In this document: one piece after another, positions 14,718 to 16,401 of the stretch | Position numbering within the stretch: the first letter of the stretch is position 1 | How the letters are laid out: every line of letters begins with the position of its first letter | DNA from: Escherichia coli | Lineage (GTDB): Bacteria > Pseudomonadota > Gammaproteobacteria > Enterobacterales > Enterobacteriaceae | Assembly: GCF_003334315.1 (NCBI RefSeq) | Contig: NZ_QOWR01000028.1 | Length of the DNA stretch: 57,407 nt | Direction: 5' to 3' (one strand) | Position numbers and translations under genes: made by a program | The notes under the pieces: model-generated | What the model saw: the letters and a program-made list of their open reading frames with translations, nothing else | Told to the model about the DNA's origin: nothing | The model's database searches: none

Positions 14718-16169
14718 TTATTTATCAGTAGTCAAAACGGTAGCTTGCGGGACGGATGTACCGAAACGGTTTCCGACCAGGAAAGCCAGCAAACTTAGTA
14801 GTAACGAGGGCACGATAGGGTGGAAGCCCAGGTACTGAATATTCAGCGTCGCGAGTACGGCATACAGCACGCCGCCAACGATCATCGCACTTAGCGCGCC
14901 TTTGGCGTTGGCGCGTTCCCAGTAAAGACCCAGCACCAGCGGCCACAGGAAAACGGCTTCCAGCCCACCGAAGGCCAGCAAATTCAGCCAGATGATCATT
15001 TCTGGCGGCTTCCAGGCGGCAAGCAGCAGCAACGCGCCGAGAACTAACGTAATTACCGCCGACATCCGCTTCAGACGCGTCTCGTTTTGCATTTGATCCG
15101 GACGGATATTCAGATAGAGATCTTTAATGATCGTAGCGGAACTTTGCAGCAGTTGGGCGTTAATTGTCGACATGATCGCAGCCATCGGTGCAGCCAGGAA
15201 GATCCCGGCGGCAAACGGTGGCAGCACTTTTACCATTAACGTCGGGATCACCAGATCCGGTACGGTGAGATCGGGGATCACCGCCCGACCTAACGCTCCG
15301 GCCAGGTGCATACCGAACATCAGGATTGCGACTACAATCGTACCGATGATGATCCCCCGGTGTACTGCTTTGCTGTCTTTATAAGAGATACAGCGCACCG
15401 CAGTATGCGGCAGGCCTATAACGCCAAAGCACACCAGTACCCAGAACGACGTCATAAAGGCAGGCGACAGAATATCGTCAGCGCCTTGTGGCGTAACCAG
15501 TTGCGGATCGATGGTTTGCAAGGTCTGTACTGCGTTGCTTAAGCCGCCAGCGGCATGTACCACGCCAATAAGCAGCACAACGGTGCCAATCAGCATCACA
15601 AGCCCTTGCATGGTGTCGTTCAGCACGCTGGCGCGAAAGCCACCAAAGGCGGTATATAACGCAATGCTGATACCAAAAATCAGCAGCCCGGTTTCATAAG
15701 GAATACCCGCCGCGGTTTCCAGCAGGCGCGCACCGCCGATAAACTGCACGGTCATCGCACCAACGAACGCAACCAGCAAACTCAAACTCGCCAGCCACAC
15801 CAGAAGACGACTCTGGTAGCGGGCAAACAGCATATCGTTTAGCGTCACTGCATTGTAGCGGCGCGCAAGAATCGCAAACTTCTTGCCGAGAATACCGAGT
15901 GAAAGCCAGACTGCAGGAAGCTGAATCATCGCCAGCAATACCCAGCCCAGCCCGTATTTATAAGCAGCTCCTGGCCCGCCGATAAACGAACTGGCACTGA
16001 TATAGGTCGCGGTGAGCGTCATCGCCAGCACAATACCGCCCATAGAGCGGCTGCCGAGGAAATACTCATTAAGGAAGGTGCCGGTGCTCCGTTTACGCAT
16101 CGCATAAACCGAGATACCGAACACCACCACCAGATAGGCGACCAGCGGTAGAATTACTTCAAGCTGCAT
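14718..16169 (-). CDS. panF: sodium/pantothenate symporter (SSS family)
   Basis: ORF 14718-16175; known protein begins [15 protein letters not shown] (483 aa); 12+ TM segments. Confidence 0.96.
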
Positions 16170-16401
16170 CGTCATCCTCCAGTGGGATATCGCGATAGAT
16201 AAATTTCACCATCGCCCAGCACAGTCCAATAAACAGCAGCGGCGTCAGGATGCAGGCCATCTCAAACCAGCGCGGAAAGCCGGTAAAACCGGGGGCAACG
16301 CCAGATAAGTAAGCGGCTACTAACCAAACTGCCAGATACAAAAGGGTCAGCCCCAGCGCCCAGCGCGCCTCTTTATGGGCCTGAACAAAACGAGTGTCCA
16401 T
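16159..16401 (-). CDS. yhdT: small membrane protein (DUF997), overlaps panF start
   Basis: 80 aa, two TM helices; 3' end overlaps panF 5' end by 11 nt (translational coupling). Confidence 0.88.
   Translation of the reverse strand: MDTRFVQAHKEARWALGLTLLYLAVWLVAAYLSGVAPGFTGFPRWFEMACILTPLLFIGLCWAMVKFIYRDIPLEDDDAA

Follow-up and report, generated by a model that had tools for sequence, protein, structure and literature searches.

YhdT, a small membrane protein of Escherichia coli, is probably an accessory subunit of the pantothenate symporter PanF, co-produced with it from one mRNA and needed for its stability, insertion or full activity. We consider YhdT most likely to be a small PanF subunit because the pairing of the two genes recurs in very different bacteria. 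For 35 years, PanF has been regarded as a Na+/pantothenate symporter made of a single polypeptide. In a 2025 review of CoA metabolism it appears as a single-gene transporter. The DNA analysed here, referred to as the window, is a 57,407-nucleotide stretch of E. coli sequence (contig NZ_QOWR01000028.1). An earlier note on this DNA had described YhdT as a protein without an established function that might be an accessory subunit of the transporter. The first part of that statement still holds, as the literature naming yhdT together with panF contains no test of YhdT, and our literature search found no functional study of YhdT or of its family, DUF997. The second part is supported by the obligate, bidirectional pairing of DUF997 with PanF amid changing flanking genes, by purifying selection on yhdT and by residue-specific motifs, and indirectly by an AF2 model of a YhdT-PanF fusion.

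All genes of the locus lie on the minus strand in the order accB-accC-yhdT-panF-prmA-dusB, both in the ORF list and in the RefSeq annotation. The yhdT coding sequence (16159..16401, minus strand; start ATG 16401-16399, stop TGA 16161-16159) encodes 80 amino acids plus the stop, and its product was assigned as a DUF997 two-helix inner-membrane protein using Pfam, NCBIfam, RefSeq, AF2 and dN/dS. The panF coding sequence (14718..16169, minus strand; 483 amino acids plus the stop) encodes a Na+/pantothenate symporter of the SSS family, as indicated by TIGR02119, RefSeq and its AF2 neighbours; the product scores 758.2 bits against the TIGR02119 equivalog (cutoff 328). The L11 methyltransferase gene prmA (13825..14706, minus strand; ORF list and annotation) begins 11 nt 3' of the panF stop and is probably part of the same operon, although outside the proposed transporter. 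On the other side of yhdT, a terminator scan detected an intrinsic-terminator-like hairpin (16470..16494, minus strand), made up of a stem of 11 bp and a downstream T run, which is located 3' of accC and 68 nt 5' of yhdT. This hairpin suggests at least partial insulation of yhdT-panF from accBC in E. coli. A promoter scan detected no consensus sigma-70 promoter between the hairpin and yhdT. A weak Shine-Dalgarno-like AGGGA (16408..16412, minus strand), recognised from sequence only, precedes the yhdT ATG by 6 nt. The Rfam search gave zero matches across window positions 12000-20000, and the region 5' of yhdT was rejected as an RNA leader, its folding (z=0.65) being nothing special. A 2-kb query around yhdT-panF was 100% identical to several complete E. 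coli chromosomes, and the region was found in 5426/5426 complete E. coli genomes.

The yhdT stop lies 11 nt inside panF, exactly as the earlier note had claimed. In the sequence, the overlap (16159..16169, minus strand; ATGCAGCTTGA) extends from the panF start codon at 16169 through the yhdT stop codon ending at 16159, and RefSeq agrees: in an identical E. coli record (L223), RefSeq/PGAP places yhdT at 1700-1942 and panF at 1932-3383, yielding the same 11-nt overlap. The mechanical ORF list opens panF at another ATG, 16175 (MTMQLEV...), two codons before 16169. As this ATG is missing in many other species, it is an unconserved start, and RefSeq and conservation both place the panF start at ATG 16169-16167 (MQLEV..., 483 aa). 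The panF Shine-Dalgarno sequence, GGAGG (16176..16180, minus strand), is located 6 nt 5' of this ATG, within yhdT codons L74-E75-D76. The junction CTGGAGGAnnnnnATGCAnnnTGA, with its 11-nt overlap, is retained in 80/80 Enterobacterales species, and CTGGAGGA, the panF Shine-Dalgarno region, is invariant across the same 80/80, these species being the best 80 matches of an alignment-based genome scan, which contained no other order. The variants seen were two species with GTG and a few with one additional codon, in which the overlap is still 11 nt. As judged from these comparisons, the yhdT-panF arrangement is far beyond chance.

Outside the Enterobacterales, the pairing was followed in both directions. 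A phmmer search with YhdT against 1.84 billion representatives gave 100 matches. For 8/8 distant DUF997 proteins taken from this search (33-45% identical to YhdT), a PF00474 SSF gene was located directly downstream on the same strand, with an overlap of 1-11 nt or a gap of 6 nt, while the flanking genes were completely different among the eight loci. Six of the partner transporters were scored, and TIGR02119 was the best match for 6/6 (311-683 bits; 5/6 above the cutoff). A further 120 loci came from metagenomes, which were scanned for a DNA pattern encoding the WFF[YL]SC form of the motif. A DUF997 open reading frame was present in 201 of the 217 loci collected, and after exclusion of five that were at contig ends, a PanF-like gene came next on the same strand in 196/196 loci with enough downstream DNA. 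These 196 loci represent 48 lineages at <80% PanF identity, or 17 at <60%, with GC contents of 25-68%. Of the 48 lineages, 39 have overlapping genes (1-13 nt; an ATGA-type 4-nt overlap in 27) and 9 have genes separated by 0-23 nt. An SD-like 4-mer was present 5' of the PanF start at 190/196 junctions and in 46/48 of the non-redundant lineages. For the reverse sample, three matches of a PanF profile search were chosen by name only, blind to DUF997; in 3/3, from Koleobacter (Bacillota), Halodesulfovibrio (Desulfobacterota) and Aminobacterium (Synergistota), DUF997 was directly upstream with an overlap of 4-8 nt. The order accBC-DUF997-panF-prmA recurs in one unrelated locus (L096); in most distant DUF997 loci, accBC and prmA are missing while PanF is always there, and no orphan DUF997 gene was seen among the sampled loci with enough flanking DNA. 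The DUF997-PanF pairing is thus specific and ancient, and within this sample it is bidirectional. With YhdT as a co-oriented neighbour of an SSS gene, conserved in distant taxa, the pair has the layout by which small subunits of SSS transporters are recognised.

No natural DUF997-SSF fusion was found among the 100 DUF997 representatives or 120 PanF-profile matches. The DUF997 phmmer matches were all at most 184 aa long, apart from one spurious 3236-aa match spanning 27 residues, and a 735-aa PanF-profile match (P0217) was rejected as a fusion because its repeated segments mark it as an assembly stutter. The missing fusions carry little weight, since a fusion of YhdT (C-in) to PanF (N-out) would be topologically awkward.

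YhdT matches the Pfam family PF06196 (DUF997) with E=4.5e-28, residues 7-77 aligning to positions 1-76 of the 77-position model, and NCBIfam PRK10633 with 165.8 bits (cutoff 107), over 1-80 of 80. It has the features that mark DUF997 proteins: a length of about 80-130 aa, two TM helices, and G-[LFM]-P-x-W-F-x-x-S-C opening helix 2. RefSeq calls the product 'YhdT family protein', and DUF997 proteins are otherwise called 'hypothetical'. In 49 Enterobacterales, the median dN/dS relative to E. coli was about 0.19 for yhdT and 0.04 for panF, and by this measure yhdT is under purifying selection. The synonymous rate of yhdT was about half that of panF (dS 0.57 versus 1.22). The 52 DUF997 sequences compared, which range down to 29% identity, share an invariant P43, and conservation reaches at least 90% at E11, W26, W45, F46, C50 and L74. 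Three motifs stand out: R-F-x-Q-A-x-[KR]-E-A at the N-terminus, G-[LFM]-P-x-W-F-x-x-S-C, and D-x-P-L-[DE]. The third motif coincides in E. coli with the panF Shine-Dalgarno sequence, but in relatives with a longer acidic tail it is remote from the start of PanF; its conservation is therefore at the protein level and not that of a ribosome binding site. AF2 modelled YhdT alone with a pLDDT of 90.2, placing helices at residues 3-32 and 44-67 followed by a disordered acidic tail. Lysine plus arginine residues, averaged over 131 sequences, number 4.3 in the N-terminus, 0.3 in the loop and 1.8 in the C-terminus. YhdT is accordingly predicted to form an N-in/C-in helical hairpin, with the periplasmic end of helix 2 carrying the conserved GLPxWF. 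The structure search returned no solved DUF997 structure (the best match, E=0.18, was spurious) and no deposited PanF structure.

YhdT and PanF were also modelled together with AF2 as a single chain, YhdT-(GS)15-PanF, using 23 paired rows. The solved structures nearest to the PanF part of the model were those of SSS transporters, with the human SGLT2-MAP17 and SGLT1-MAP17 complexes at the top, besides SiaT, NIS and CHT1. The fusion had a pTM of 0.83; pLDDT was 81-95 in the YhdT blocks and about 30 in the linker, and the model was judged from these two measures. By the definition of pTM, an unplaced YhdT of 77 residues together with 43 disordered residues was estimated to give a pTM near 0.72-0.75. 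The higher value obtained suggests that the model assigns YhdT a defined placement on PanF. A comparison of the pLDDT of fused YhdT with that of YhdT alone is non-discriminating because the latter is already at 90. Covariation between the two proteins (MI with APC; 157 pairs, Meff 49) yielded phylogenetic noise, with clade-specific columns (Y19, for example) prevailing.

The Keio design of Baba and colleagues, from 2006, is said to keep the last six codons of the deleted gene; therefore, the yhdT deletion should have spared the start codon of panF and the greater part of its Shine-Dalgarno sequence. The Keio deletion of yhdT is synthetic-lethal with panB, panC, panD and panZ, exactly as is the deletion of panF, and the authors of that study assumed that, because the genes overlap, the yhdT deletion had disrupted panF (PMC5120140). 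As genetic evidence, the yhdT deletion phenotype, which mimics that of panF, is suggestive yet confounded by polarity.

Three other explanations for the gene pair have to be weighed against a subunit role, and the junction itself bears on one of them. Instead of making a lasting contribution as a peptide, yhdT could act mainly in cis, either by loading ribosomes on panF through termination-reinitiation or by SRP delivery of the mRNA-ribosome complex to the membrane, or both. As in coupled pairs, the upstream stop overlaps the downstream start, here by 11 nt, and the panF Shine-Dalgarno sequence lies inside yhdT; such overlaps, of 1-13 nt, are seen in 39/48 lineages, in line with a role of this kind. 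SRP delivery would also aid the insertion of PanF, whose first helix is N-out and is preceded by hardly any tail, and the lower dS of yhdT hints at constraint at the nucleotide level. However, the second mark of a coupled pair, a sequestered downstream start, is absent: no occluding RNA structure was found at the junction (MFE of -35.6 kcal/mol for 131 nt, z=0.09 relative to shuffles). Translational coupling of yhdT and panF is plausible from the gene layout, but PanF synthesis may be independent of yhdT translation, because panF has a strong Shine-Dalgarno sequence and no occluding structure. Moreover, gaps of 0-23 nt occur in 9/48 lineages, and almost all lineages have an independent PanF Shine-Dalgarno sequence. 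A generic open reading frame would not need an invariant P43 or near-invariant E11, W26, W45, F46 and C50 at 29-45% identity, nor would a coupling frame need the specific hairpin that AF2 predicts with confidence. We therefore regard a role mainly in cis as rather improbable.

Alternatively, YhdT might be a regulator that tunes or inhibits PanF uptake, whether bound to the transporter or indirectly, as AcrZ, SgrT and MgtS do with their targets, and that is dispensable for basal activity. Obligate pairing and conserved motifs fit a regulator as well as a subunit, the conserved acidic cytoplasmic tail and the N-terminal R-F-x-Q-A-x-[KR]-E-A motif could be regulatory surfaces, and the constraint on yhdT is weaker than that on panF (dN/dS 0.19 versus 0.04). 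Yet such regulators are usually lineage-restricted and often separately regulated, whereas DUF997 occurs with PanF in every sampled lineage; the start/stop overlap pattern is typical of partners in stoichiometric complexes; and the yhdT deletion phenotype, if real, is a loss of uptake and not a gain. A regulatory function is consequently unlikely, although it deserves more credit than a role in cis. The remaining explanation is that YhdT works independently of PanF and that its adjacency to panF reflects operon hitch-hiking; with accBC nearby, membrane or lipid homeostasis would be one such role. The gene does lie between accBC and panF-prmA in E. coli and in L096, and multicopy accB-accC-yhdT fragments suppress an ftsEX null mutation, but the authors of that work credited the suppression to accBC (PMC7648144). 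As accBC and prmA are gone from most distant loci while PanF never is, and no DUF997 orphan was found among the sampled loci, we consider an unrelated function very hard to believe.

The subunit role that we favour can be pictured as follows. YhdT and PanF would be translated from one mRNA, and, with the panF ribosome binding site within the last yhdT codons, ribosomes ending YhdT could start PanF at once. Such an immediate restart would supply YhdT and PanF in balanced quantities at a single membrane site. The YhdT hairpin would then pack on the periphery of the 13-helix PanF to give a 15-helix complex, in which YhdT would be required for the stability, insertion or full activity of PanF. The analysis establishes the gene anatomy, the universal and specific association of DUF997 with PanF, the purifying selection acting on YhdT, and a predicted hairpin with its topology, whereas the binding of YhdT to PanF, its stoichiometry, the requirement for transport and actual translational coupling are inferred. 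A broader proposal is that PanF is an obligate two-subunit transporter throughout bacteria, that DUF997 is its universal 2-TM beta subunit, making contact through the invariant periplasmic-side G-L-P-x-W-F-x-x-S-C motif, that DUF997 represents the third independently evolved family of SSS small subunits, and that the synthetic lethality of yhdT with the pan genes is a true phenotype; we put this forward tentatively, giving it a little less than an even chance.

The annotated yhdT-panF pair is already known, as are small SSS subunits in principle. If YhdT is required, both genes would have to be included in annotations and metabolic models that list only panF, and in heterologous expression or engineering for vitamin B5 uptake, and a function could be assigned to DUF997, a family spread over many phyla. 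It would then appear that bacterial SSS transporters recruit small two-helix partners repeatedly, with DUF997 joining DUF485, DUF4212 and the eukaryotic MAP17, and PanF-YhdT would be a tractable E. coli model for the action of small subunits.

Very small membrane proteins such as KdpF, CydX and AcrZ often share an operon with the complex to which they bind and were long overlooked. Their partners (a P-type ATPase, an oxidase and an RND pump) differ from PanF, and they are mostly single-helix proteins with a narrower phylogenetic range than the two-helix DUF997 family. Among SSS transporters, YjcH (DUF485, PF04341) resembles YhdT in being a small two-helix protein encoded directly upstream of its SSS gene, actP, on the same strand. 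The yjcH-actP overlap in E. coli K-12 is 4 nt as compared to 11 nt for yhdT-panF, and ActP, an acetate/glycolate:cation symporter of 549 aa in E. coli, belongs to another SSS clade than PanF. Homology of YhdT to YjcH/DUF485 was considered and rejected (hhalign probability 4.8%). A requirement of DUF485 for its permease is indicated by non-polar transposon cofitness (10.1101/072470); the genetic evidence on YhdT, in contrast, is confounded by polarity. DUF4212 (TIGR03647) is likewise a small hydrophobic protein with a conserved context upstream of an SSS large subunit (VC_2705-type). It is cofit with its SSS partner in several bacteria, which supports its being a required small component (10.1101/072470). 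The family differs from YhdT in its partner clade and substrates (lactate, D-alanine), and it is curated as 'solute:sodium symporter small subunit', whereas DUF997 carries no subunit name; YhdT was rejected as a DUF4212 homologue by a non-significant Pfam match (E=8). MAP17 (PDZK1IP1), like the proposed YhdT subunit, is a small membrane accessory protein at the periphery of an SSS-fold transporter, SGLT2 or SGLT1. Work by Coady and colleagues in 2017 reportedly established that SGLT2 activity needs MAP17. MAP17 is a eukaryotic protein with a single membrane pass whose gene is unlinked to that of its transporter, whereas YhdT is a two-helix bacterial protein encoded next to panF. In comparisons with DUF4212 and YjcH, no homology of YhdT to either small-subunit family was detected; therefore, beside DUF485 and DUF4212, YhdT would be an independent family with the same mode of action.

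The neighborhood of the DUF997-PanF pair in Aminobacterium (L221/L222:2223-6476), a locus picked by the PanF profile without reference to DUF997, provides an independent contextual tie of this pair to pantothenate metabolism. Here panB (Pantoate_transf) and a gene for an ApbA/PanE-type ketopantoate reductase lie two genes away from the pair, with an IclR regulator between. In several other distant lineages, gene context placed amidohydrolase or peptidase genes 3' of the DUF997-PanF-like pair. A Peptidase_M20 gene follows the pair in L086 (1337-4347), as it does in L087, and in L094 (1829-6237), where a GntR regulator is also encoded upstream; OPT and Peptidase_S58 genes follow it in Koleobacter (L218/L219:2203-6476), and an MR_MLE enolase-superfamily gene follows it in L089 (3001-5955). 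As pantothenate is an amide (pantoyl-beta-alanine), all of these loci could serve pantothenate catabolism or the uptake of related amides. Alternatively, these peptidase- or amidohydrolase-linked PanF-like transporters may have another substrate, their match to the PanF equivalog profile TIGR02119 notwithstanding.

In the E. coli window, only 11 nt (14707-14717) separate the panF stop from the prmA start, and yhdT-panF-prmA therefore look like a single, tightly packed transcription unit. There is no obvious functional tie between prmA, encoding the ribosomal protein L11 methyltransferase, and pantothenate transport. The panF-prmA adjacency is absent from most distant loci but was seen again in one of them, L096 (694-5607; GC 47%), where the gene order is aroQ-accB-accC-DUF997-panF-prmA. 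At that locus, accC overlaps the DUF997 gene by 4 nt with no terminator between them, unlike in E. coli, where a terminator hairpin (16470-16494) lies 3' of accC; in the L096 lineage, yhdT-panF appears to have been joined into the accBC operon. The L096 DUF997 protein is itself unusual, as it lacks the conserved S-C and reads WFEWVAL.

When E. coli was compared with other Enterobacterales, the synonymous divergence of yhdT (16159-16401) was about half that of panF (14718-16169), with median dS values of 0.57 and 1.22, respectively. This suggests additional nucleotide-level constraint on yhdT, possibly due to translation signals or mRNA features, or the low value may simply be noise, the gene being 240 nt. 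Two codons before the annotated panF start there is another in-frame ATG (16173-16175, minus strand), which follows GGAGG immediately, with no spacer; a mechanical ORF list begins panF there, giving 485 aa. We rejected it as a functional start because it is missing from many Enterobacterales, which carry GAC, AAC or AGC variants instead. The best match of the PanF profile, a 735-aa protein from NCBI (P0217), was likewise rejected as a fusion protein: it is built of stuttered, repeated PanF segments and almost certainly arose through an error of assembly or gene calling.

Previous work reported that an ftsEX null is suppressed by multicopy fragments carrying accBC and intact yhdT together, the plasmids pEP50 and pEP74 carrying accB-accC-yhdT-panF' (PMC7648144). 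The authors ascribed the suppression to accBC, on fragments that also bear yhdT (PMC7648144).
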